Shown one piece after another: positions 1,070 to 53,800 of a DNA stretch of 64,000 nucleotides; the first letter of the stretch is position 1, and each line of letters opens with the position of its first letter. Origin of the DNA: a virus. Both the position numbers and the translations under genes were made by a program. The stretch is from the IMG/VR virus record IMGVR_UViG_3300045988_108506, positions 1 through 64,000 of that record; one strand, 5' to 3'. The notes beneath the pieces were generated by a model. That model did no database searches and was not told the DNA's origin. It saw only the letters and a program-made list of their open reading frames with translations.

Positions 1070-1559
1070 CAAGGCACGGAGAGCGCCGTTAAGCTCTCCA
1101 AAGGTTTGACGCGTACCGTTAAACGCGCTTGTACGCCGTTGTCAGTGGGTGCACGTCCCGCGTATGCTTTAGACTGAAGCTGACAAAACAGAGAGTTATT
1201 TTACATATTGGAGATAGATATACCTTTGCCCTTGCCGTTGGCAATTAAAGGGCTGGTATTACTGCATGTACTACATTGGATAAATGTAGTTATGTTAGGT
1301 ATGTTAGTACAGTTTGAAAAACATACCGTTGTACGCGGTTTATCTCCAGACCGAAATGTGCCTTACTTGCCTGCACGTAAAATAGGACAAGGCTGTAGAT
1401 TAAATTACAGGGTATAAACATGTAGCCTAACATGTAGGAACATGTTGTATCAAAACGCAAGGACACAATCGCCTTTATTTGTGGCTAAGTTGTGTAGCAG
1501 ACGGAAAATATAATAACAACATAGTACGGGCCTGTACACAAGGACTACGTACTAATTAC

Positions 1560-1630
1560 GGGCTGTTGGTTGTAGCATAAAATCTCTATAGGATAGGAAT
1601 GCGCGTCCGGTTCGATTCCGGAGCAACCTC
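1560..1630 (+). tRNA. tRNA-like element E1 (perfect T-arm TCCGG-TTCGATT-CCGGA); canonical cloverleaf not resolved
   Basis: GGTTCGATTCC T-loop hallmark. A 5' GGGCTGT segment can pair with 3' GCAACCT at 6 of 7 positions. D and anticodon arms could not be built by eye. Confidence 0.3.
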
Positions 1631-1653
1631 TAAATTATAAACAATATAATAGC

Positions 1654-1824
1654 ATGGAAAAGAAAGCAATGATCAACGCTTTAATTGAAGCGTTCAATAA
1701 ATCTAAAAACAGTTGCGTAAAAATAACATTGCGTAACTATATCGAGACGGTGAAAGCACTAAGCGAAAGTGAGTACAAAGAGGCGGAAGGTTTCTATATT
1801 GAAGCACTTAACCGCTGGGGTTAA
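1654..1824 (+). CDS. small hypothetical protein (56 aa), below the ORF-track size cutoff
   Basis: ATG at 1654 and TAA at 1822-1824. It starts about 20 nt after element E1, the same arrangement as the genes following E2 and E3. Confidence 0.4.
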   Translation: MEKKAMINALIEAFNKSKNSCVKITLRNYIETVKALSESEYKEAEGFYIEALNRWG

Positions 1825-1846
1825 TCATAATTAAAGCATAAAGAAA

Positions 1847-2053
1847 ATGGAAAGGAAATTTAAATCTCACATGGTAGACGTTCGCGGTCTGTCCAGGAAA
1901 GAAGCTAAAGAAAAGCGGAAAAGAGCGTATCGTGAATTTATGTTGTATCGTGATCTCAAAGAAGCGTATCATGCCGATACAGGAAAGGACAAATGCAAGC
2001 GTAAAGTTCATACATCACGAACATACGTCAAGGAAAACATAAACAGCATTTAA
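1847..2053 (+). CDS. small basic protein (68 aa, K/R-rich)
   Basis: Six-frame ORF, followed by an intrinsic terminator. Confidence 0.5.
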   Translation: MERKFKSHMVDVRGLSRKEAKEKRKRAYREFMLYRDLKEAYHADTGKDKCKRKVHTSRTYVKENINSI

Positions 2054-2060
2054 ATAGGAG

Positions 2061-2097
2061 TAGGGTTGTTCCGAACGTCGGAGCAGCCCTATTTTCG
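2061..2097 (+). terminator. rho-independent terminator (8-bp stem TAGGGTTG/CAGCCCTA followed by TTTTCG)
   Basis: Hairpin plus T-tract 8 nt after the stop codon of ORF 1847..2053. Confidence 0.5.
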
Positions 2098-2157
2098 TAT
2101 CCTACTCTTTCTATTTACGGGTAGGTATTCTGAGAGTGAACGGCGGATGTGTGCCAT

Positions 2158-2250
2158 ATTGGTCTAAAACGAAACTAAAATAGGATAGTTTGGATATAAT
2201 GCCGGTATTTTGTCTATATCATGTCGTTAAAATTGGTCTAAAACGAAACT
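2158..2250. repeat. 19-bp direct repeat ATTGGTCTAAAACGAAACT (2158-2176 and 2232-2250)
   Basis: Exact repeat read in the sequence, inside a gene-free region. Confidence 0.7.
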
Positions 2251-2251
2251 T

Positions 2252-2297
2252 GAGGCGGTTTTCTGACCCAAAATAGGGTGTCGGATGCCGCCTTTTT
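2252..2297 (+). terminator. terminator-like hairpin GAGGCGG...CCGCCT followed by TTTTT
   Basis: 7-bp GC stem with a long, partly paired loop, followed by a T5 tract. Confidence 0.4.
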
Positions 2298-2583
2298 CAT
2301 CTCTATAGATTGAAAATCAGGCTTATTGTATTTTTCTTAAAAACGAGGTATGCTTGATTATCAATTAGTTATGTTTTATAATACCCGTATTTTCGGACAT
2401 ACTTATTGTAAATTTTTTATTTTATGTGGTGGTTTTTATTAGTATCTGACCTGTATTTTTTATCGGTTGGAGTAAGGTCTATGTTAGAGTACGGACCAGA
2501 TCAGTATAATATCGTGATGGTTTTTTGCTTTTTGTTTCTGGCTTTGATTATAGGTCTGAATATCTATCTTGATAGGAGGAGCA

Positions 2584-2718
2584 GGCGGTAGGGCGTGGGC
2601 TGAAGTCTCTCTATTCTCTCTATGGAATGATATTATCTCCAAATCCTCCATATTCCATGCCAGAGTATAAGCTTGTAGCGCTCTCCGTATGCCGGTAGTG
2701 AGGCGGTAGGGCGTGGGT
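2584..2718. repeat. 16-bp GC-rich direct repeat GGCGGTAGGGCGTGGG (2584-2599, 2703-2718)
   Basis: Exact direct repeat immediately upstream of the tandem array. Confidence 0.6.
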
Positions 2719-2770
2719 TCTATGCGGAAAGCCGGAGGATTAGCGGGAGTTGGAGAGGGGGAGAGGGAGG

Positions 2771-3075
2771 GCACTCTCTTCCAACAAAATAGGGCACTCT
2801 CTTCCAACAAAATTAAGACTTACTTCCAACAAAATTAAGACTTACTTCCAACAAAATTAAGACTTACAGCGTTTTAAATCTGTAGGTTTTCCAACAAAAT
2901 TAAGACTCTCTTCCAACAAAATAGGGCACTCTCTTCCAACAAAATTAAGACTTACTTCCAACAAAATTAAGACTTACTTCCAACAAAATTAAGACTTACA
3001 GCGTTTCAAAATTAAGACATGCGTTTTAAAACAGTATAGGTTTTCCAACAAAATAAAGTATGATAGCGTTTTAAA
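2771..3075. repeat. Tandem iteron-like array: 10 copies of a 22-23 bp unit with core TTCCAACAAAAT (starts 2779, 2802, 2824, 2846, 2889, 2911, 2934, 2956, 2978, 3043), arranged as two ~130-bp super-repeats punctuated by AGCGTTTTAAA elements
   Basis: Read directly. Units abut with no unique spacers. Spacing is about two helical turns. Confidence 0.85.
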
Positions 3076-3488
3076 CCATCATTCCATAGGCTGGTAGTAA
3101 GTGAAATGTTTAACAATTAAAATATAAACAACATGAACGTATATGACTTTGCGCCTGACTTAGATTTGAGTAAGGAGGTAGTTGGGGTGAAAGGGATAGA
3201 AGGCAGTGATGGTATAGTATATGCTAAGGTAGTTAGCTGTGTAGACGTTAAGGATTAGAGTAGTGATGGTGTATTTTTTATGATTGTTATAAGGATAAAT
3301 GTTTATTATCGGGTAGTGATAGTTGTATAGATGGAGATTGGATTAGTAGGTACGAACAGGCTGCCATAGAGGGGGAGTAGGCGGCGCCTTGGGCTAAGGC
3401 CTGCGGTTGTAGGTGGAGCGTAGGCCAGGGCAGAGCCGGAACAGTTTATTGTGGAACGTGAAAAGAACAGATAAAAAAAGGAGGAGAT

Positions 3489-3569
3489 ATGAAAAAGATA
3501 TTTAAGACATTCTCTATTATGCTTGTCATAGAAATAGTGTTGATAGCTATTTTAGATGCTATGGCGTAA
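3489..3569 (+). CDS. micro-ORF, 26-aa hydrophobic peptide (MKKIFKTFSIMLVIEIVLIAILDAMA)
   Basis: AAAGGAGGAG Shine-Dalgarno 4 nt upstream of the ATG, which is unusual in this genome. Single predicted TM helix. Confidence 0.35.
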   Translation: MKKIFKTFSIMLVIEIVLIAILDAMA

Positions 3570-3627
3570 GTGAGGAAGATTTTCTTCATTAATTTTCTTA
3601 TGCTTTAGACAGAATGCTCCCGTCTGC

Positions 3628-3694
3628 GAAGATCGGAGTATTTGCTTTATGGGATTCATGGTGCAGTAGGTCGGTTCGATTCCGGCGATCTCAC
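3628..3694 (+). tRNA. tRNA-like element E2 (T-arm GTCGG-TTCGATT-CCGGC, then GATCTCA-C)
   Basis: Same T-arm and trailer as E3. A 5' GAAGATC segment pairs with the 3' GATCTCA at 5 of 7 positions. Not a canonical tRNA by eye. Confidence 0.3.
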
Positions 3695-3723
3695 ACAACA
3701 TTAAAAACAAAGGAGGAAAGAAA

Positions 3724-4065
3724 ATGAAAGATGGTATTACATTACATCCAGAACACGGATTGAATCCGTCTATAGAAGTCTGCATGATATGTGGCGAAGA
3801 GATGGGCATTGCTTTATTAGGAAATAATATCAAAGGTCAGGCGCCGCATCATATATGCACGGGCGGAGTATGTGACGATTGCAAAAAGATAATAGATGAT
3901 GGTGGTTGTTTTATTATCGAGGTTGAAGATGGATCAGATCAAAAGAATCCGTATCGTACAGGAAGATATTGTGCGATAAAGAAAGAGGCGGCAAAGAAGA
4001 TATTTGGACAGGAGCATAATATTGTGTACATGGAAAAGTCTGCATACAGTCAAATAATACCATAA
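3724..4065 (+). CDS. Cys-rich putative zinc-binding protein (113 aa)
   Basis: Six-frame ORF. CMICGEE and CDDCKK cysteine pairs. SD-like AAAGGAGGAAAG upstream. Confidence 0.6.
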   Translation: MKDGITLHPEHGLNPSIEVCMICGEEMGIALLGNNIKGQAPHHICTGGVCDDCKKIIDDGGCFIIEVEDGSDQKNPYRTGRYCAIKKEAAKKIFGQEHNIVYMEKSAYSQIIP

Positions 4066-4079
4066 AAATAAAGAAGGAT

Positions 4080-4394
4080 ATGTTTACAAAAGAAGAGCGA
4101 TTATTCATATGGAAAAAGGTATATGAGATGATTGATAGGTTAGAGGATGGGGAATACATATGTGTTGCGTTAAGAAATGTAGTGTTTATGTATTTCAAAA
4201 CACATAAAAATATCTATGAGTTTCGTTCAGACGAAATGGTGAGAATATATTTCCCGGAATTGGAGGAGAAGATAAGTATGGCCACAGAACCAGAGGAAAC
4301 AAGAACGTTTTATGGGTGGTTTGGTTGTCTTAGTCCAGAAACGAAGGAGGTAAGGCTGAATATTGTGAAAGATATTATAAAAGAATTAGAATAG
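4080..4394 (+). CDS. hypothetical protein (104 aa)
   Basis: Six-frame ORF. Confidence 0.55.
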   Translation: MFTKEERLFIWKKVYEMIDRLEDGEYICVALRNVVFMYFKTHKNIYEFRSDEMVRIYFPELEEKISMATEPEETRTFYGWFGCLSPETKEVRLNIVKDIIKELE

Positions 4395-4487
4395 TATTTT
4401 TGTTAATCTATTTTATTCATCAAATTAAGTTTTGGGTTTTGGCATGTCGGTTCGTGAGGATAGGCATGCCTATTTCTGCATCATAGA

Positions 4488-4548
4488 GGGGATGACGCGG
4501 CGTGCCGGTGCGTATGTGCCGGTCCTGGTTCGATTCTGGGCATCTCAC
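4488..4548 (+). tRNA. tRNA-like element E3 (T-arm CCTGG-TTCGATT-CTGGG, then CATCTCA-C)
   Basis: T-loop hallmark. A 5' GGGGATG segment pairs with the 3' CATCTCA at 6 of 7 positions. Preceded by a GGCATG...CATGCC hairpin. Not a canonical tRNA by eye. Confidence 0.3.
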
Positions 4549-4569
4549 AAACAATAAAACAAAAAAGTT

Positions 4570-4803
4570 ATGAGAATATATAAGAATGATATTATAAAGG
4601 CGTCAGCAATAAGCACCGGAGCCGACAGAGGCGTGTTGCTGTGTTCAATAACAGATTCAGGCTTTACGTCTATAGCGGGCGTAATATCGGCTGTTAAGGA
4701 TAGGTTACCAAACGAAGATCACAAGAAGATGGTTTTTGAAATCTTGAATGATACGAAAAAAGAGTACGGAAGATATAATAATTGCGGAACAAAAGTATTG
4801 TAA
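4570..4803 (+). CDS. hypothetical protein (77 aa)
   Basis: Six-frame ORF starting about 20 nt after E3. Confidence 0.5.
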   Translation: MRIYKNDIIKASAISTGADRGVLLCSITDSGFTSIAGVISAVKDRLPNEDHKKMVFEILNDTKKEYGRYNNCGTKVL

Positions 4804-4922
4804 TAAAGAGTAGAAAACAATATGTTTATGTAATATTAGTTTTTTCATTTTTATTGAAAGGAGCGCCGGCCTGTGAAGGTATGCGCTCTTTGTATTTGTA
4901 TAATGCATAAAACAATAATAAT

Positions 4923-5177
4923 ATGACAGAGAATAGTATAGACGTAAATATCGTACCTGTAAAGAATGGTATGAAACGTGTTGTGGTATCATATTACCAT
5001 TATTCACGCAAGGAGAAAGATCGCATGAGTTCCCAAACGGATTACGTTTGGGAAACAAAGAATGAAGAAATGTTTAAATACTTTGAGGCCAGGAGGACAA
5101 AAGTATTTTATAGTCAGATTCGTGCCATGTGTAGATTCTATGGCAAGAAAAATGTACGTAAATACAAAAAGTTATGA
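4923..5177 (+). CDS. hypothetical protein (84 aa)
   Basis: Six-frame ORF. Confidence 0.5.
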   Translation: MTENSIDVNIVPVKNGMKRVVVSYYHYSRKEKDRMSSQTDYVWETKNEEMFKYFEARRTKVFYSQIRAMCRFYGKKNVRKYKKL

Positions 5178-5983
5178 TATTAAAAACGACAACCAACGAG
5201 TTTTGTTTCATTAACGTAAGTTTCTACGAAACAATAGCAGATCCTCGTCATTTCTTTGAACAGGATTATGAAGAGATGCCAGAATATGAGGAGGAATCGG
5301 ATTTTGATTTTGATTCTTATTACAATAAGTTTATTCCTTTTGTACAGGAATGGGCGAATGAGGTAAGTGAACGCCTTTACGGATATGGCGTGAATAGTAT
5401 AAAGGTAACATCGGTCGGATATCCGAAAGAATATAATTATGGTACTGATTGGATGAACGTAGAGGTAGAGTTTTGTGATGAATGGAGGCAAAAGATGTTA
5501 TCTAACATTAGTAAGATTGTCAATGATGATAAATGCAAGAAGTATGCGGAGACTAATTACCGGTCGGTATCAGGATACATCTTTTTAGGGCCTGAAGATT
5601 TAAAGGAATTTGAAAAGGAAATAATAGAAAGAAAGTCGGATTCCGGATATGATGTAACAATATTATTAAATATGTATCTAACTTTGGCTTTTGTAAAAGA
5701 ATTTGGATTTAAAGCCGGAGAAGCATGGAGTGAAATAACAGAATATGCTTACGGATGTTTATCGTATTCCGATTTTGCAACAACAGAGATGCTTATACCG
5801 GGAGGTTCGGAGCATTTATTCAAAGACATTTACACGGCAAAGGCCGACGAATTATATCATCATGTCCTGGATAAATTCGGATGGGCGTGGCGTGATCCGA
5901 AATATAAGTCAGAAACAGAATTATGCGCGATGCTAAAGTGGGCAAAAGAAAAAGGCTTGACCATTGAAGAGTTAAGTATTTAA
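5174..5983 (+). CDS. hypothetical acidic protein (269 aa)
   Basis: Six-frame ORF. ATGA start/stop overlap with the upstream gene. Confidence 0.65.
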   Translation: MILKTTTNEFCFINVSFYETIADPRHFFEQDYEEMPEYEEESDFDFDSYYNKFIPFVQEWANEVSERLYGYGVNSIKVTSVGYPKEYNYGTDWMNVEVEFCDEWRQKMLSNISKIVNDDKCKKYAETNYRSVSGYIFLGPEDLKEFEKEIIERKSDSGYDVTILLNMYLTLAFVKEFGFKAGEAWSEITEYAYGCLSYSDFATTEMLIPGGSEHLFKDIYTAKADELYHHVLDKFGWAWRDPKYKSETELCAMLKWAKEKGLTIEELSI

Positions 5984-6010: not shown

Positions 6011-6295
6011 GTGAGTATAGGTGCTGCCGTTAAAATATTTTATAAGATGAAAAAAGAAGAGATTCAAACTATTTTATACACAATCAAAGAAGGAGACAGT
6101 ATTAAAATCAAAGTACAAGACAAAAGTGAAGAGATAAGACTGCGGGATCATGTAAGAAGAGTACAGAAATACGGATACAGGTTTTGTTTGTCTCATTTAC
6201 ATGATGGAATTTTCTATCTGGAGAAGTTGAAAGAAGGGGATAAGGATAAATACTATAGAGTAATAAACAGAGGAAATGGAAAGACCGGAGTATAA
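6011..6295 (+). CDS. hypothetical protein (94 aa)
   Basis: Six-frame ORF. Confidence 0.5.
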   Translation: MSIGAAVKIFYKMKKEEIQTILYTIKEGDSIKIKVQDKSEEIRLRDHVRRVQKYGYRFCLSHLHDGIFYLEKLKEGDKDKYYRVINRGNGKTGV

Positions 6296-8047: not shown

Positions 8048-8120
8048 TTTTCCATGTAAGTTAGTTGCCGGCACTGGTCTGTGAAGATAGGTGTCGTTTT
8101 TTTAAGAAAGGAGGATAAAG

Positions 8121-13918: not shown

Positions 13919-14098
13919 ATGGAAAATCCAATTATTGTTCCGTTTGATTTAAATACGGCGAGAAAAATTAAAAGCGGAGAAATAGAAGGTTCAGTATTAA
14001 TTGGTAATATTAAAATAGAATTTGTATATGAGTCAAAAGACTGTGCAGATCGTTATAATTTACTTTTGGTAACGGCAAAACATAAACAATATGAATAA
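13919..14098 (+). CDS. small hypothetical protein (59 aa), below the ORF-track cutoff
   Basis: ATG at 13919 and TAA at 14096-14098. Overlaps the start of the downstream gene by 8 nt in another frame. Confidence 0.35.
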   Translation: MENPIIVPFDLNTARKIKSGEIEGSVLIGNIKIEFVYESKDCADRYNLLLVTAKHKQYE

Positions 14099-14753
14099 TT
14101 TTGTAATAGATACTCCAGATAATTTCTGGCAAATAAGATGGCTTGACAAGTATATGGAAGGCCACAAAGGATTCATAGCTGGTGGATGTTTTAAAAATAT
14201 CCTTTCCGGAGAAAGAGTAAAAGACATTGATATTTTCTTTGAAAGTGAAAGCGATTTTCAGGAGGCTATTGATTCGTTCAATGATGAAAAACATCAGAAA
14301 GAAGGATGGAAATTTAAGTACAGAAATGAGAAGGCATGTGCGTTCCAGAAAGAGGGAGAAAAGGTATGGATAGAGTTCATAGAGTCAGAGTTTGGAAAGC
14401 CGAAAGAGATTCTTAGGAGCTTCGATTTTACTGTGACAAAAATGGCTTACTATAAGGAGCCCAAATACGAAGAAAAAGAAGATGATTATTTTCCATTCTC
14501 ATCTGCAAGTATAGTAGCATACGAGTACAAACTACTCTATCATGAGAAATTCTTCGAACATCTTCATATGAAGAGGCTGGTCATTGACGAAAATATTCCT
14601 TTTCCAGTAAGTACATGGGAGCGCTCATATCGGTATAAAGGATATGGTTACAATATGTGCCGGGAGACAAAGAAAAAACTTCTACAGGCTATTAAAGGTG
14701 TAAACGTAGAGGAGGGAGATGTATCTTTGTACACTACTGGAGGATGGGATTAA
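14091..14753 (+). CDS. putative pol-beta-type nucleotidyltransferase (tRNA CCA-adding/poly(A) polymerase head-domain-like)
   Basis: GFIAGGCFKNILSGERVKDIDIFF matches the GG-x(9-13)-DhDh signature of class II tRNA nucleotidyltransferase head domains (GGaVRDllLG..pkDiDi). A later acidic residue at FDFTV is a candidate third carboxylate. Confidence 0.5.
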   Translation: MNNFVIDTPDNFWQIRWLDKYMEGHKGFIAGGCFKNILSGERVKDIDIFFESESDFQEAIDSFNDEKHQKEGWKFKYRNEKACAFQKEGEKVWIEFIESEFGKPKEILRSFDFTVTKMAYYKEPKYEEKEDDYFPFSSASIVAYEYKLLYHEKFFEHLHMKRLVIDENIPFPVSTWERSYRYKGYGYNMCRETKKKLLQAIKGVNVEEGDVSLYTTGGWD

Positions 14754-16363: not shown

Positions 16364-16834
16364 ATGAATCGCTGGTTTGAAATTACGGTAAAAGCCGAGA
16401 TTGATAATATCGAGAACGGCAAAAAAAAGAAAGTAACTGAAAAGTATTTGGTAGATGCCTTGTCTTATACAGAGGCAGAATCAAGATCTTTAGAGATTTT
16501 CAAGGATTTATTTCAAGTGTTCGACATTATTAAAATAAATCCTATTAAAGTGTCGGAAATCTTCTTCAACGGAGAAGCTGAGTACTGGTATAAGTGTAAG
16601 GTGAATTACATTACACTGAATGAAAAGAAAGGTAAAGAAAAGAAAACGCCATGCTATATGTATGTCCAGGCCGGCAATCCGAAAGACGCTGAGGCTGTGT
16701 TAACTAAAGGTATGCAGGGCACGTTAGGAGACTGGAATTGCGAAGCTATTGCTGAAACGAAGATCATTGACGTATTCAAATACGATCTTCAGAAGGGAGC
16801 TGAAAAATTAGGCGAGAAGAAGAGTGAAGAGTAA
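16364..16834 (+). CDS. hypothetical protein (156 aa)
   Basis: Six-frame ORF. Confidence 0.55.
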   Translation: MNRWFEITVKAEIDNIENGKKKKVTEKYLVDALSYTEAESRSLEIFKDLFQVFDIIKINPIKVSEIFFNGEAEYWYKCKVNYITLNEKKGKEKKTPCYMYVQAGNPKDAEAVLTKGMQGTLGDWNCEAIAETKIIDVFKYDLQKGAEKLGEKKSEE

Positions 16835-34675: not shown

Positions 34676-35212
34676 TTATAATTCTACATAGGTGTCAATA
34701 GGAACAAAGCTGCCAATTGTACTTATCTTATATATTGAATGAATAAGGTGAGTACTTGGACTTAATTTCAGTTGAGGTACTTGATTGGATCCTTCTGTAA
34801 TAAAGAAATAATAAAAAACGTCTCCAATCGTAAACCGTAACATAATATCACCTGTTACCGATCCTTCATTAAAGTAAGCCTGGATATATTGTCCAGAATT
34901 TGATATCGTACAATTTATAGGATTACCGCCCATCGTACATACCTTGCTATTATTAATTTCATCTAAAACATAGGAAGCCGCCATAGTTGCTCCATTAGAT
35001 CGGTATCTACAACCAAGAATAGGTACAGGATTTCGCCATGTGGTTGTAGGGGCCGAAATCGAACAAGCAAAAACAGGGATCTTGCCGCCAGCAACTGTAT
35101 TAATATTTTCAAATCTTCGTCTCATGATTTTTGTTTGCAAGATAGCAATAATTGACAACATAAAAGAAACCGGTTCCCTATCATCTCTGACTGAGAACCG
35201 GTAAGAAAACAA
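34676..35212 (-). CDS. hypothetical protein (178 aa), last gene of the - block
   Basis: Six-frame ORF. Confidence 0.5.
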   Translation of the reverse strand: MFSYRFSVRDDREPVSFMLSIIAILQTKIMRRRFENINTVAGGKIPVFACSISAPTTTWRNPVPILGCRYRSNGATMAASYVLDEINNSKVCTMGGNPINCTISNSGQYIQAYFNEGSVTGDIMLRFTIGDVFYYFFITEGSNQVPQLKLSPSTHLIHSIYKISTIGSFVPIDTYVEL

Positions 35213-41761: not shown

Positions 41762-41903
41762 AGTAAAACATTTTTGTTATGAGACAAAGGTAGTTAAAAA
41801 TCAAGCATATCATAGAAAATAAAGCCATCTAACTTCTCAGTCTGATGGCTTAAAAATAATATGAAAAAAAATTATAATCTGACGAAAAATCGTCAAGTTC
41901 AGC

Positions 41904-47387: not shown

Positions 47388-47556
47388 ACAACCAGAGGTG
47401 GGATCTCGTTGTTCATTGTTTCTGGAACAAAGATAGGAACAGGATTTTAAATAACAAATATTTTAATACTTTTTAAAACAAACCAGGGCCCGCATCACTG
47501 CGAACCCTGATCTACACTAATCTAAACTAATACCATGAAAAACTTAAATCTAAAAA

Positions 47557-47790: not shown

Positions 47791-48015
47791 TTCCTACCGT
47801 TATTAGTTACGTTCTGTTCTTACTTTTCCCTATTTTCTATAATCCCTTCCTGAAACTAATATTGCAAACTTAATAAAAATAATTCATAAACAATGAAAAT
47901 CTAACTTTTCTTGTATGTTATTGATATACGTGCATATATGAGAAAAGTGAGACTTTCACAAGCCTCACTTCCCAAATCGTAATTATGAAAAAACTATATT
48001 ATATATATACAAAAA

Positions 48016-50840: not shown

Positions 50841-53800
50841 TCCTTATTTAACTCATTTATCGAATCCGAATTATCAGAACCTTCTACGAGATTCTTATTC
50901 CTATCTATCTCTTCCTGACTCATGTTACTCATCATATTTTGTATTTTTCTACCAGATTGAGATAAAGAGCGGATGAATGCACTGGAACTTATCTTAACTC
51001 CAAGATCCGGTTTTGCCCTAAACGCTTCACCGGTACTGATATTATACAAATCATACACACCTGAGTTCATATAGAATTTATATATCCAGTTTCCACCAGC
51101 TTTTTTGTACCCTAATTTGGTTAACTCGACTACACTCATACCAAATTTAATGCCATTACGACCCATTATCTTCTCAGGTATCTGTTCTACCTTAGCCGGA
51201 ACAGATGTATATGCTTCATCACCGCCGTACAGAAAATAAGGGGTTGTTACCCTTGATATGTGAGTAAGCGGTTCTTCGGATATACGAGGTTCGTCTTTTT
51301 CTATTTCTCCTTTTGTAGATCCAGGTAATTCGACATTTCCTTCAACTTCGACATTTGTTCTGGATTGTCCTTTGCCTTCTCCATCTCCCTTTTTATCGCC
51401 ATCTTCCTCAGTGCGTACTGCACCGCCTTCTGCACTTCCTTCTTTTCCATCATTTAAAATATTATCTGATTCTGACTCTATAGACTCCACAACAGCATCA
51501 TACTCTGGTATGCCGCTAAGGAAATCTGCTACGTTATTCAAAAACTCTATTTTTTCCTCGTTTGTCATATCAAGGCTTTCCACGGGCCTCCATATGGCAG
51601 GCAAGTTGTTTGATTTTATTGCAGTAGAAACATCTTCTACAGTTTTATTATCCACCGTAGGCAAAACTTTAGAAACCAAACTATTGATATCAGATTCCAT
51701 TTTTTCTACTTCCTCTTTTGTGCCATATTCTTTTAGGGTATCCATGCCATTGACTCTAAGAGAATAATTTAAAGCCTTACTTGGAACAAAATTAATATAT
51801 TTCAAAAAGTTTTCCAACTCTGATATAATTTGTTCATCAGATCTTGGACCAACATAATCAACCACCACCTGATCTGTTTGAGAACGAAGCCAAGAAATGT
51901 ATTCTTCTAAAGTCTTACCACCTTTACTGGAAGGAGTGGATATTTTATCACCTACTGTTCCTTTAGGTTCTAATCCCATTTCCTCCTTAAGACTTTTAGG
52001 ATTACCTCTCTCACGAAGAAACCTCAAATCACCTCCTACAATCTTCCTTGCTATAAAATCAAAAATATTAGCATAAGGCGGCAATCCCTCTTTTTCTATA
52101 TGAGATTCTATTTCGTTTAACATAAGAGAGAAGTTTTTCCTGGAGGTACGCTTCTTGCCAGGTAAAGACTGCGCATCTTGTGCCGCAGGAGCCGGCTGAG
52201 CTAATGGCGCCGTCTGAGTCTCCCGGGCAGCCCCTTCCTCTGGCATTTCCTCTTCATAAACATCCACGTATTCTTTAGAAGTAACGGTCTTACCCTCATC
52301 AGAGAAAGGAAGATCATCCTCTATAAGTGATTTAGGTCTGGAAGATGATTTACCAAACTGAATCCTGATCTTAGGAGCGACAAACATCTCACCTTCGAAA
52401 TCTATTCCAGATTCTACTTCAGACGTCACAATGTCTTTCACATTCCTGCTTTCATCTTCTACCCATTTAACAACATCAGGAACCGTAGATAATTTTTCTA
52501 TAGCCTCACGAGCTTTTCTAAGCCCTGAAATAGGATTCAAATACGATACTTGATACGAAGCCGGATCAAGGCCTAACTTGGTTAGATACGCATTAAGATC
52601 TTGTATATCATCTTGACCCATCTGTAGCAATTCAGAATCACCGGATTCAAGCAGCATATCTATAAAAGACATCCATTTCCGCCCTTCCTCTGATTCCACA
52701 GAACGCAGGCTAACTGGGAAAAGATAATTAAGACCGTTTTTACCTTTGATGACAACTACCGGAACTCTTACATTTTTGTAATTATTCCCCTTGTCATTTA
52801 ATATAGAATAAGCAAATGGGAAGCCTGTGTATTTAGATCCGTTCTTAAGCACGACTTTGCCATTTAATACATATCCGACATCAGATACTTTTTCAGCACC
52901 TTTTTCGGTAATAGGGAGATTTTCTACCTGGCCATATCCTTGACCGTTCACCTTCATGTTAAACACCGGTCTTCCGGGAAGGGTCTGGGCAACAACATGC
53001 GTGCCGACGCCGATGGTAGCCGACCGGCCGGCGTCCTTCTTCCACTTGTTAAAAGCCGTTCTTCTTATCTTACTTATACCATCTATGCCTCCTGTGTCAG
53101 CTTTTACAACAGAAACGAATCTGTTTCCACTCATGACCTTGATAACCATATTGGACACCAGTTTATTCTCAGCAGATTCTATTCTTTTTTTATCGCCGGA
53201 CTGAACAGCATCATTGTATTCGGCAAAAAGAGACTGATTATAGGTATCATTTACATCTATTTCGAGATTAACCTTATCTCCTTTTTTCAAAGAAGATAAT
53301 GCTTCCTGATCTATTTTATCTACCTCATTATCTCCGAATCCGACACCCGTTCTGTACGGAACCAACTCATCTGAATCAAGACGCTTATAAACCAAAGAAT
53401 AGGAATTACCCACGTCCTGAATAGACACATCTGTGTAGCGATTAAGAACACGAGCCGATTCTTTGTCTATAGACCATCTCGCATGATAAGGAAGTTCTAT
53501 CACGGTAGCCGTTTCTCCACCTATGTTAAGGAAATACCTTTTAGTTCCATTAGCGTTCGTTTCAGAACTTATTTGAATAGGAACCAATGATTTTATTGAA
53601 GATATAAATTTATCGGCTCTAAGACCTGCAATTTCATACCTTTCATTGCCGTCATTGGAGATTCTTCTCACCATCAACGTCTCTGGATTCTGGGCGCTAT
53701 CTATATTGGCTCCTGGCGTATTATCGGATTCATCTAACTCATTTACAAGAGAATCTATATTAGCATCATCTTCCCCAAAATTACTCAACGTAGATTCAGA

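Follow-up and report, generated by a model that had tools for sequence, protein, structure and literature searches.

Why should a phage place a perfect tRNA T-arm three times in front of small genes, at sites where no tRNA gene is found? The question is raised by positions 1 to 64,000 of the IMG/VR virus record IMGVR_UViG_3300045988_108506, a stretch of 64,000 nucleotides (nt) that is here called the window, and by three elements in it, which we name E1, E2 and E3. An earlier note on this DNA had pointed to them from the letters alone and had offered three explanations, namely tRNAs of unusual structure, armless mini-tRNA-like structures, or tRNA-mimic processing or stability signals at mRNA 5' ends. 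We propose that E1, E2 and E3 are tRNA-derived signals for RNase P and RNase Z that would punctuate early phage mRNAs, a reading to which we give about an even chance. It is drawn from the end-processing features that the elements have retained and from the precedent of the t-elements of plant mitochondria.

Structure and conservation of E1, E2 and E3

The exact motif GGTTCGATTCY is present at 1609, 3673 and 4527, each time on the plus strand and within 3 kb, which makes three occurrences against 0.06 expected, and none of 100 dinucleotide shuffles reached this number. As the earlier note had stated, all three motifs are part of a 5-bp stem with a 7-nt TTCGATT loop, and an open reading frame (ORF) with an ATG start (56, 113 and 77 aa, at 1654, 3724 and 4570, respectively) begins 22-30 nt past each element. 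Around the T-arm the three elements follow a common plan, in which an acceptor-like stem of 6-7 bp is stacked on the 5-bp T-arm (11-12 bp in all) and the D-arm and anticodon arm are replaced by a connector, 13 nt long in E2 and containing, in E1 and E3, a hairpin whose loop has 4-5 nt; the paired strands are only 37-55 nt apart (Table 1). The acceptor/T stack, the canonical UUCGAUU T-loop, a G-containing connector and a single-stranded 3' trailer are kept in all of them, whereas none has the two arms that define a canonical tRNA, a D-arm and an anticodon arm whose 7-nt loop carries U33, the anticodon and R37. Likewise, CCA is encoded in none of the three and a 7-nt anticodon loop cannot be drawn, both in agreement with the earlier note. 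Its second explanation, an armless mini-tRNA-like structure, is therefore a fitting description, since all three consist of an acceptor and T-arm stack with a connector.

The 7-nt segment behind each T-arm had been reported to pair with a segment upstream. Since a partner matching at 6 or more of 7 positions is found within 50 nt in 42% of random trials, such a pairing alone proves nothing. For E1 and E3 the proposed pairing is kept in natural variants; for E2 the 5' segment had been chosen wrongly, as 3628-3634 lies inside a covarying hairpin (3613-3642) and its pairing shows no covariation. The acceptor strand of E2 is instead 3650-3656, which pairs with 3687-3693 at 7 of 7 positions (5% of trials by chance) and is compatible with the hairpin. 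Two other models of this region were rejected. A first "hairpin 2" for E2 (3643-3665) had no double changes and several unpaired variants, and was replaced by the acceptor at 3650-3656, and a distal 5' partner GUGAGG for CUCAC (at 3570 in E2 and in the hairpin loop at 4453 in E3) is broken in two relatives, once in the 3' strand (CAUUCAAC in L016) and once in the 5' strand (GUAAAAA in L087). The acceptor strands of E2 (UGGGAUU/GAUCUCA) and E3 (GGGGAUG/CAUCUCA) are clearly related, with U.G as the pair beside the T-stem in E2 and G-C in E3. The trailers of these two elements are similar as well, though an indel separates them and they are not the near-identical 24-mer that had been described.

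Of the searches suggested by the earlier note, those with ARAGORN and Rfam found no tRNA here. ARAGORN called neither a tRNA nor a tmRNA gene in the 64-kb window, and Rfam 15 was without a match at gathering score. When the threshold was relaxed to E ≤ 10 in 1300-4800, the elements still had no match to any Rfam family, and the weak matches included no tRNA-type or tRNA-like family. The many G.U pairs of the stems interconvert with G-C and A-U and would be C.A mismatches on the other strand; since they can form on the plus strand only, the fold belongs to the plus-strand (sense) RNA.

All three elements recur, with their stems paired, in relatives that number more than 100 viral contigs, so that the lack of conservation which the earlier note had considered was not found. 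Distinct variants were collected (27 of E1, 44 of E2 and 45 of E3), whereby the copies of E1 are unbiased and those of E2 and E3 were fetched by a pattern containing the T-loop; counts from the collection scans are lower bounds throughout. Running from the T-loop through the 3' strand of E2/E3, this pattern matched at least 119 IMG/VR stretches on contigs of about 7-250 kb, mostly 80-250 kb. In the alignment of E1, 99.9% of the cells are paired and double changes occur in six pairs, located in the T-stem, in the middle hairpin at its tip and in the hairpin upstream of E1, a result that none of 500 shuffles reached, while the acceptor stem is invariant among the 27 variants except for U.G to U-A changes. 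The proposed fold of E1 is also its minimum free energy (MFE) fold, as found by the folding check that had been recommended. The hairpin upstream of E1 is paired in 100% of the cells, and two of its seven pairs carry compensatory double changes (G-C to U-A, U-A to C-G). In E2, 99.7% of the cells are paired; T-stem changes (U.G to C-G, C-G to U.G) keep the pairing, and all three 3'-strand substitutions in one relative (L060) keep that of the acceptor. E3 is paired in 98.8% of the cells with 25 extra pair types, and its acceptor stem shows one G-C to A-U double change (L016) besides G.U to A-U and G-C changes. Two further relatives (L039 and L071) have lost 14 nt of the middle hairpin of E3 and kept the remainder. 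The hairpins in front of E2 and E3 are conserved in the same way, with compensatory changes in three pairs of 3613-3642 (19 cells; reached by none of 500 shuffles), and with 98.9% of the cells paired and double changes in two pairs of 4441-4470. Among 261 copies retrieved by BLAST with the loop left unconstrained, 250 have the T-loop TTCGATT, and of the other 11, ten vary only at positions that are free in tRNAs (R57, N59, Y60) and one breaks TTCRANY. A fourth element between E1 and E2, suspected in some relatives (GGTTCAAATCG), was a false positive without a T-stem.

Table 1. Positions of the elements, their parts and neighbouring features in the window. H, hairpin type described in the text.
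Feature	Position	Strand	Description
Hairpin 5' of E1	1522-1554	+	7-bp stem (1522-1528 with 1548-1554), 19-nt loop, no U-tail
E1 tRNA-like element	1567-1629	+	alignment A1; MFE fold; called by neither ARAGORN nor Rfam
E1 acceptor-like stem	1568-1573 with 1623-1628	+	6 bp; U1567.U1629 mismatch
E1 middle hairpin	1575-1602	+	4 bp, internal loop, 4 bp, 5-nt loop
E1 T-arm	1606-1622	+	UCCGG-UUCGAUU-CCGGA
E1 leader	1630-1653	+	A/U-rich, up to ATG of 56-aa ORF (1654-1824)
H hairpin before E2 T-arm	3613-3642 (~3612-3643)	+	8 bp, 1x1 loop, 4 bp, GCGA tetraloop, U-rich tail
E2 tRNA-like minihelix	3650-3693	+	44 nt; 7/7 pairing; alignment A3 of variants
E2 acceptor-like stem	3650-3656 with 3687-3693	+	7 bp; UGGGAUU with GAUCUCA
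E2 connector	3657-3669	+	13 nt; CAUGGUGCAGUAG
E2 T-arm	3670-3686	+	GUCGG-UUCGAUU-CCGGC
E2 leader	3694-3723	+	A-rich with GGAGG, up to ATG of 113-aa ORF (3724-4065)
H hairpin before E3	4441-4470	+	8 bp, 1x1 loop, 4 bp, GUGA tetraloop, then UAUUUCUG
E3 tRNA-like element	4488-4547	+	alignment A2
E3 acceptor-like stem	4489-4494 with 4541-4546	+	6 bp; G4488.A4547 mismatch
E3 connector	4495-4503	+	9 nt; ACGCGGCGU
E3 middle hairpin	4504-4523	+	8 bp, GUAU loop
E3 T-arm	4524-4540	+	CCUGG-UUCGAUU-CUGGG
E3 leader	4548-4569	+	A-rich (CAAACAAUAAAACAAAAAAGUU), up to ATG of 77-aa ORF (4570-4803)
H hairpins	3612-3643, 4441-4470, 4858-4891, 8069-8096	+
H hairpins	35169-35202, 41822-41851, 47478-47515, 47942-47973, 53274-53299	-
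Predicted nucleotidyltransferase	14091-14753	+	220 aa; polymerase-beta-type motif (GGCFKNILSGERVKDIDIF)

Genomic setting and a parallel family

From position 2135 on, the window matches the end of phage csAssE-Sib (OR575929.1, 151 kb, human gut) at 93.5% identity. The two records are circularly permuted relative to each other, window position 1 corresponding to about record 2100, read downward, and E1 therefore lies near the start of OR575929.1 (about record 530), while E2 and E3 lie near its end. In the window the first 30 kb contain small unknown genes and replication genes on the plus strand, and the large structural genes are on the minus strand. Annotated Bacteroidetes-associated carbohydrate-binding proteins suggest a host among the Bacteroidota. 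For the 56-, 68-, 113-, 104-, 77-, 84- and 269-aa ORFs downstream, neither Pfam nor PHROGs gave anything informative about function. An origin of the elements from a host tRNA fragment or an attP site was considered and dropped, as the E2/E3 pattern matched no tRNA gene in 185,579 species genomes; its four matches were three unrelated places that are not tRNAs by ARAGORN, and one contig nearly identical to this phage under a Veillonella metagenome-assembled genome.

The hairpins before E2 and E3 belong to a type, here called H, that has nine copies in the window and consists of 6-12 bp, a 1x1 (once 2x2) internal loop, 4 bp and a GNRA, mostly GUGA, tetraloop. A T-rich tail follows eight of the nine, all but 53274-53299, and the H hairpin looks like the usual intrinsic-terminator-like hairpin of this phage. 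In front of several copies, at a distance of up to about 40 nt, stands a T-rich motif resembling ...TTTTTCAT. A scan for sigma-70 promoters between the hairpins and the ATG gave no more than shuffled sequence, and TAnnTTTG, the -7 box of Bacteroides, shows no enrichment (80 copies, 67 expected). No copy of it lies inside the elements, and one is at 4395, upstream of the E3 hairpin.

The genuine tRNAs of this lineage occupy the same kind of site. In all loci of the relatives ARAGORN found only a tRNA-Met-Gln-Arg-Cys cluster, 6-9 kb upstream of the elements, and never called an element of the E type. In csAssE-Sib and in locus L011 an H hairpin of the same type as 4441-4470 (in L011 at about 5901-5931) ends 6 nt before tRNA-Met, the cluster follows, and an ORF begins 17 nt after tRNA-Cys; genuine tRNAs and E elements therefore share one slot, composed of a hairpin, a tRNA or tRNA-like element, a short A-rich leader and an ORF. 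The tRNAs of the cluster encode no CCA, and two of them, Cys and Arg, have the T-loop TTCGATT. Moreover, the annotation of csAssE-Sib includes a polynucleotide kinase (PNK)/3'-phosphatase, an NrnA-like phosphodiesterase and a 220-aa poly(A)/CCA-type nucleotidyltransferase. The genes of the PNK/3'-phosphatase and the NrnA/DHH-type phosphodiesterase (OR575929.1 2615-4409, locus L126; also L131:1-1585) lie just upstream of the window start, as an RNA-repair-like pair adjoining the tRNA cluster and the tRNA-like elements. The nucleotidyltransferase is the third of these proteins. For the homologue of this last enzyme in the window, encoded at 14091-14753, the nucleotidyltransferase prediction has support from PHROGs only, including a nucleotidyltransferase family at 2e-08, with no sequence match in Pfam or PDB, and the protein is far shorter than known CCA-adding enzymes.

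Gene content changes among relatives at the borders of the elements. The 56-aa gene is absent in some of them (two loci compared with window 1630-1850), with the breakpoint directly past ...AACCUCUA, and a 134-aa gene has been inserted directly past ...CACACAACAUUAAAA, the E2 trailer, in many (window 3694-3724). Other relatives carry a different gene 3' of E3, the breakpoint being directly past ...ACAAUAAAAC, and in one (L013, compared with window 4128-4474) a single deletion has taken the 104-aa gene together with the hairpin at 4441-4470, up to the spacer about 13 nt before E3.

Related arrangements exist besides E1, E2 and E3. A fourth element, which we name E4 (L037:10925-11048 in a relative, and at least five further loci), combines a hairpin with a GUGA loop with GGGACG...CGUCCC around an AGCGG-UUCGAUU-CCGCU T-arm, followed by ACAAAUAGG; in L037 it stands about 34 nt before a DUF4494 gene, whereas the DUF4494 gene of the window (16364-16834) has no element in front. 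A scan built on E4 (GCGGTTCGATTCCGC, 8 nt, ACAAA) matched at least 120 stretches, and among the matches listed 31 lie in ARAGORN tRNAs and 94 outside. This led to a 42-nt minihelix with the plan 5 nt, AAYGGUU plus 4-6 nt, 7 nt, UUCGAUU, 7 nt, 5 nt and then ACAAA, found in at least 16 loci with up to four copies per fetched locus (for instance at 5595-5648, 6111-6164 and 6905-6958 of L152, minus strand). Its alignment (A4) shows compensatory changes in 9 of 12 pairs (42 cells), which none of 500 shuffles reached, and no Rfam family matches it. An ORF of at least 40 aa begins 10-36 nt downstream (once 57 nt) in 48 of 54 copies, compared with 23% of random positions, and an ORF ends 0-18 nt upstream (once 35 nt) in 48 of 54; since the flanking ORFs are so close, there is no room for a promoter and a terminator, and the minihelix is an intercistronic RNA element. 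A single locus, L152, was studied more closely; it is a Mu-like prophage, and the nearest named homologues of the MuB-like ATPase that it encodes are from Flavobacteriales (among them Chryseobacterium, Elizabethkingia, Riemerella and Ornithobacterium). The covariance model of this family (R1) matched in the window only the T-arms of E1 and E2 (13.9 bits, E about 1), below the scores it gives to T-arms of genuine tRNAs, and did not match E3 at E ≤ 10, and the minihelix is therefore taken here for a functional parallel and not for the same family. Modules like that of E3, in which an H hairpin and a tRNA-like element are combined with the trailer ACAAAUAAUAAAAC, are also present in unrelated contigs of 30-50 kb. 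Several further groups of viral contigs contain longer T-arm elements that ARAGORN does not call, with trailers of the ACAAA type and acceptor stems that are clear; one group has GCAGGGU...CUCCCUGC-ACAAAUUUU (L133, L136, L138 and others), a second GAGCUG...CAGCUC-ACAAAG (L139, L145, L160 and others) and a third GAUUGCGA...UCGCAAUC-ACAAAUAAUAAAAC (five loci); another is at L229:300-392. Some of them are preceded by the same type of GNRA hairpin as E3.

Other features of the first 6 kb were noticed as well. The window opens with a direct repeat (1-130; ATGTTTATGTGATG..., two copies within 50 nt), and a C-rich block at 61-90 is almost invariant among relatives (0.5% divergence). About 500 nt 5' of E1 (1070-1560) contain no convincing ORF, are conserved in patches (below 3.5% divergence at 1141-1200 and 1501-1530) and have no Rfam match; this could be another non-coding RNA or a regulatory region. 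At 2778-2999 the 22-nt unit CTTCCAACAAAATTAAGACTTA is repeated in ten tandem copies, nested in higher-order repeats of 110-154 nt (the array reaching about 3058), within a 1-kb stretch free of convincing ORFs. No other region varies as much among relatives (30-45% divergence, with lower coverage), and the array may be of the iteron or origin type or bind a protein. Inside ORF 4923-5177, a hairpin at 5028-5063 (UUCCCAAAC-GGAUUAC-GUUUGGGAA, then ACAAAGAAUG) matches the outer stem and trailer of R1 (19.6 bits, E 0.03) but has no T-arm; nowhere in the first 6 kb is conservation higher than around it, at 5041-5160 (0.1-2% divergence), and an alternative ATG ORF starts at 5062.

Proposed processing signals and competing explanations

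RNase P, RNase Z and the CCA-adding enzyme measure the acceptor/T stack, the T-loop, a G-containing connector and the single-stranded 3' trailer. This is what E1, E2 and E3 have retained, and what they have lost or can dispense with are the D-arm and anticodon arm, which decoding needs. The explanation of the earlier note as signals at mRNA 5' ends thus has the best support as to function, which comes from the context of the elements, and the function itself can be imagined as follows. Transcripts reading through the terminator-like hairpin upstream would be cut by host RNase P at the 5' side of the element and by a 3' tRNA-processing activity, for example RNase Z, directly past the acceptor stem. 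The upstream RNA would then be trimmed back and end near the protective hairpin, and the small gene downstream would be freed with a short, unstructured, A-rich leader. Such leaders are translated well by the Shine-Dalgarno-poor Bacteroidota. The excised RNA of 44-63 nt would be a by-product, to which CCA may be added. It also speaks for processing signals that the lineage appears to invest in tRNA-end biochemistry, judging from the predicted PNK/phosphatase and CCA-type nucleotidyltransferase. The genuine tRNAs in the same slot and the independent 42-nt minihelix between cistrons count on this side, too.

Several points weigh against processing signals. It is entirely from anatomy and context that we infer the cutting of the RNA, its consequences for translation and what becomes of the excised piece. 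In E1 and E3 the stack counts 11 bp, the outermost position being mismatched, compared with the canonical 12 bp. E2 and E3 lie directly behind terminator-like hairpins and their transcription therefore needs leaky or suppressed termination or an unrecognised promoter. Folding stability is not above that of shuffled sequences (z -1.0 to +0.5), the proposed folds of E2 and E3 lie 1.6-2.7 and 1.7 kcal/mol above their MFE, respectively, and a double change was never seen in the acceptor stem of E1. The relatives are close, with a mean column identity of 84-96% in the element alignments, so that the covariation rests on few independent events, and as the T-loop was part of the retrieval pattern, its conservation in E2 and E3 is partly ascertainment. 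In addition, a more distant phage (L127) encodes a homologue that is 57% identical to the 113-aa protein, and neither a T-arm nor a tRNA lies within 12 kb there; the link between element and gene is therefore not ancient.

Unlikely in our view, though in keeping with the location in an early host-takeover region among small unknown genes, is that the excised elements are themselves the product, that is small stable CCA-tailed tRNA mimics acting in trans. They could possibly be decoys or competitors for host defence nucleases that target tRNAs, for enzymes that modify tRNAs or for nucleotidyltransferase toxins, or else be acted on by the RNA-repair and CCA-type enzymes of the phage itself; the PNK/phosphatase and the CCA/poly(A)-type nucleotidyltransferase of the lineage hint at a conflict over tRNAs, and the T-loop identity is strictly kept. 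However, a decoy for an anticodon nuclease needs the anticodon loop that the elements do not have, a mimic acting in trans needs neither the tight and oriented coupling to a downstream ATG nor, in the 42-nt minihelix, that to the upstream stop codon, and three different sequences with a dispensable middle hairpin speak against a specific target in trans.

The distance to the ATG, which is short and fixed (22-30 nt for E1, E2 and E3, 10-36 nt for the 42-nt minihelix), would equally suit an element that is never cut, namely a structure in the 5' untranslated region or between cistrons that stabilises the mRNA or recruits ribosomes or translation factors by tRNA mimicry. Bacteroidota largely lack Shine-Dalgarno-led initiation, the elements have so far occurred only in phages of Bacteroidota, and A-rich trailers follow them. 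We nevertheless consider this unlikely, since the conserved stack length, T-loop and single-stranded 3' trailer are what end-processing enzymes read, no complementarity to rRNA stood out as conserved, a GGAGG already precedes the ATG behind E2 and a bacterial precedent is not known. Very unlikely is the more specific form, in which the mimics would bind to the ribosome or to a translation factor and place it on the start codon 10-36 nt downstream, as an initiation at internal cistrons that resembles an internal ribosome entry site, in phages of the Shine-Dalgarno-poor Bacteroidota.

Decay is another conceivable origin of the reduced folds. As tRNA pseudogenes left by duplications of the phage tRNA cluster, the elements would have no present function, and the genuine tRNAs of the lineage share with them the T-loop (TTCGATT in Cys and Arg) and a similar layout. 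The trailer of E1 (ACC-U-CUAAA) resembles that of tRNA-Cys (GCC-U-CUAAAAA), and the elements as a whole have diverged (2-7%) no less than the adjoining genes. Yet about 99% of the cells preserve the pairs and compensatory changes are present, the variation of the T-loop obeys the tRNA rule, deletions hit the middle hairpin and spare the acceptor/T core, and analogous minimal elements have multiplied in other phages and covary strongly there, which makes pseudogenes quite improbable.

The breakpoints at the 3' ends of the elements (the 134-aa gene after E2, the loss of the 56-aa gene after E1, the other gene after E3) and the similar 3' strand and trailer of E2 and E3 could also point to a feature of the DNA, either a recombination hotspot shuffling gene cassettes, as with the promoter-stem-loop cassettes known in T4-type phages, or a site that binds a protein or forms a cruciform. 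This has very little probability, since the G.U pairs are C.A on the other strand and form no symmetric cruciform, recombination leaves the exact T-loop identity of a tRNA unexplained, and breakpoints are expected beside conserved non-coding islands anyway. Functional decoding tRNAs without a D-arm, like some mitochondrial tRNAs and akin to the first explanation of the earlier note, are extremely improbable in spite of the canonical T-arm, the acceptor-like stem and the lack of an encoded CCA that is normal for this phage's tRNAs, because the loops of the middle hairpins have only 4-5 nt (CUAUA in E1, GUAU in E3, none in E2) and differ among relatives, some natural variants have lost most of the middle hairpin of E3, and ARAGORN and the Rfam tRNA model miss all three elements, although ARAGORN detects the Met-Gln-Arg-Cys cluster of the relatives.

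If E1, E2 and E3 are indeed processing signals, phages of Bacteroidota would use stripped-down tRNA mimics to borrow the tRNA-trimming enzymes of the host for the cutting of their own mRNAs, a kind of borrowing that is known from mitochondria and from a few eukaryotic and herpesviral RNAs. The expression of early gene cassettes split by terminator-like hairpins would be explained, annotators would gain a rule for recurrent matches that are tRNA-like and not tRNA, and RNase P, RNase Z and CCA-adding enzymes of bacteria would have defined minimal natural substrates (42-63 nt). Two families at the least that Rfam does not contain are open to modelling and to a virome-wide search.

Comparison with known systems

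In the literature searched no description of such elements in phages was found, and a catalogue of structured RNAs of viruses from 2023 speaks of tRNA-like candidates in no more than general terms. The t-elements of plant mitochondria (wheat, Arabidopsis, Brassica Ogura cytoplasmic male sterility) were found by the motif GGTTCRANYCC outside canonical tRNAs; cuts by RNase P and RNase Z make 5' and 3' ends of mRNAs there, and the excised element gains non-encoded C and A (Forner et al., 2007; PMC1920247). E1, E2 and E3 share with them the T-arm motif, a non-canonical tRNA-like fold with an acceptor-like stem and the place beside protein-coding genes, whereby the likeness in position, 22-30 nt before an ATG on the same strand, concerns position only. 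Unlike the t-elements they are smaller (44-63 nt), have no D-arm at all, are paired with terminator-like hairpins and are known from their sequence alone. Since a phage of Bacteroidota stands here against a plant organelle, the t-elements are analogues and not homologues.

Embedded tRNAs or tRNA-like folds also serve as cut sites of RNase P and RNase Z that free the flanking RNA in the tRNA punctuation of polycistronic mitochondrial transcripts, in the mascRNA of MALAT1 and in the tRNA-miRNA units of murine gammaherpesvirus 68. These are eukaryotic or organellar and have full cloverleaf-like folds, in contrast to the acceptor/T minihelix of E1, E2 and E3 in a bacterial host. The tRNA-like domain of tmRNA likewise has an acceptor stem and a T-arm without an anticodon arm, with a remnant of the D-loop as connector. 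However, its ends are joined across about 300 nt with pseudoknots and a tag reading frame, and it is recognised by ARAGORN, whereas the strands of the E elements are 37-55 nt apart and a G.U in the stem of E3 is not conserved at the alanine-identity position. The YrlA module of bacterial Y RNAs and the viral 3' tRNA-like structures (of the types of turnip yellow mosaic virus and tobacco mosaic virus) mimic the T-arm and elbow of tRNAs for host tRNA enzymes, too, but the YrlA part is closed by a Ro-binding stem, and the viral structures are located at genome 3' ends and have pseudoknotted acceptors.

The Flavobacteriales 42-nt minihelix has in common with the E elements a stack of acceptor-like stem and T-stem (12 bp in the minihelix), the UUCGAUU loop, a 5'-side connector with YGG, an A-rich, ACAAA-type trailer, an ATG 10-36 nt further on and the Bacteroidota setting. 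Size and plan are alike in E2 (7+5 bp, 13-nt connector with AUGGU), whereas in E1 and E3 a helix of 11 bp and a connector that folds into a hairpin stand in place of the 12-bp bulged helix and the connector of 11-13 nt. The minihelix differs further in that its stack is 5+7 and not 7+5, its connector has AAYGGUU and it abuts the upstream stop codon with no terminator hairpin between. The matches of R1 give no evidence for common descent beyond the tRNA-derived T-arm. Processing signals that resemble tRNAs are known as such, and what would be new here is the setting in phages of Bacteroidota, the reduction to a minihelix and the coupling to terminator-like hairpins.

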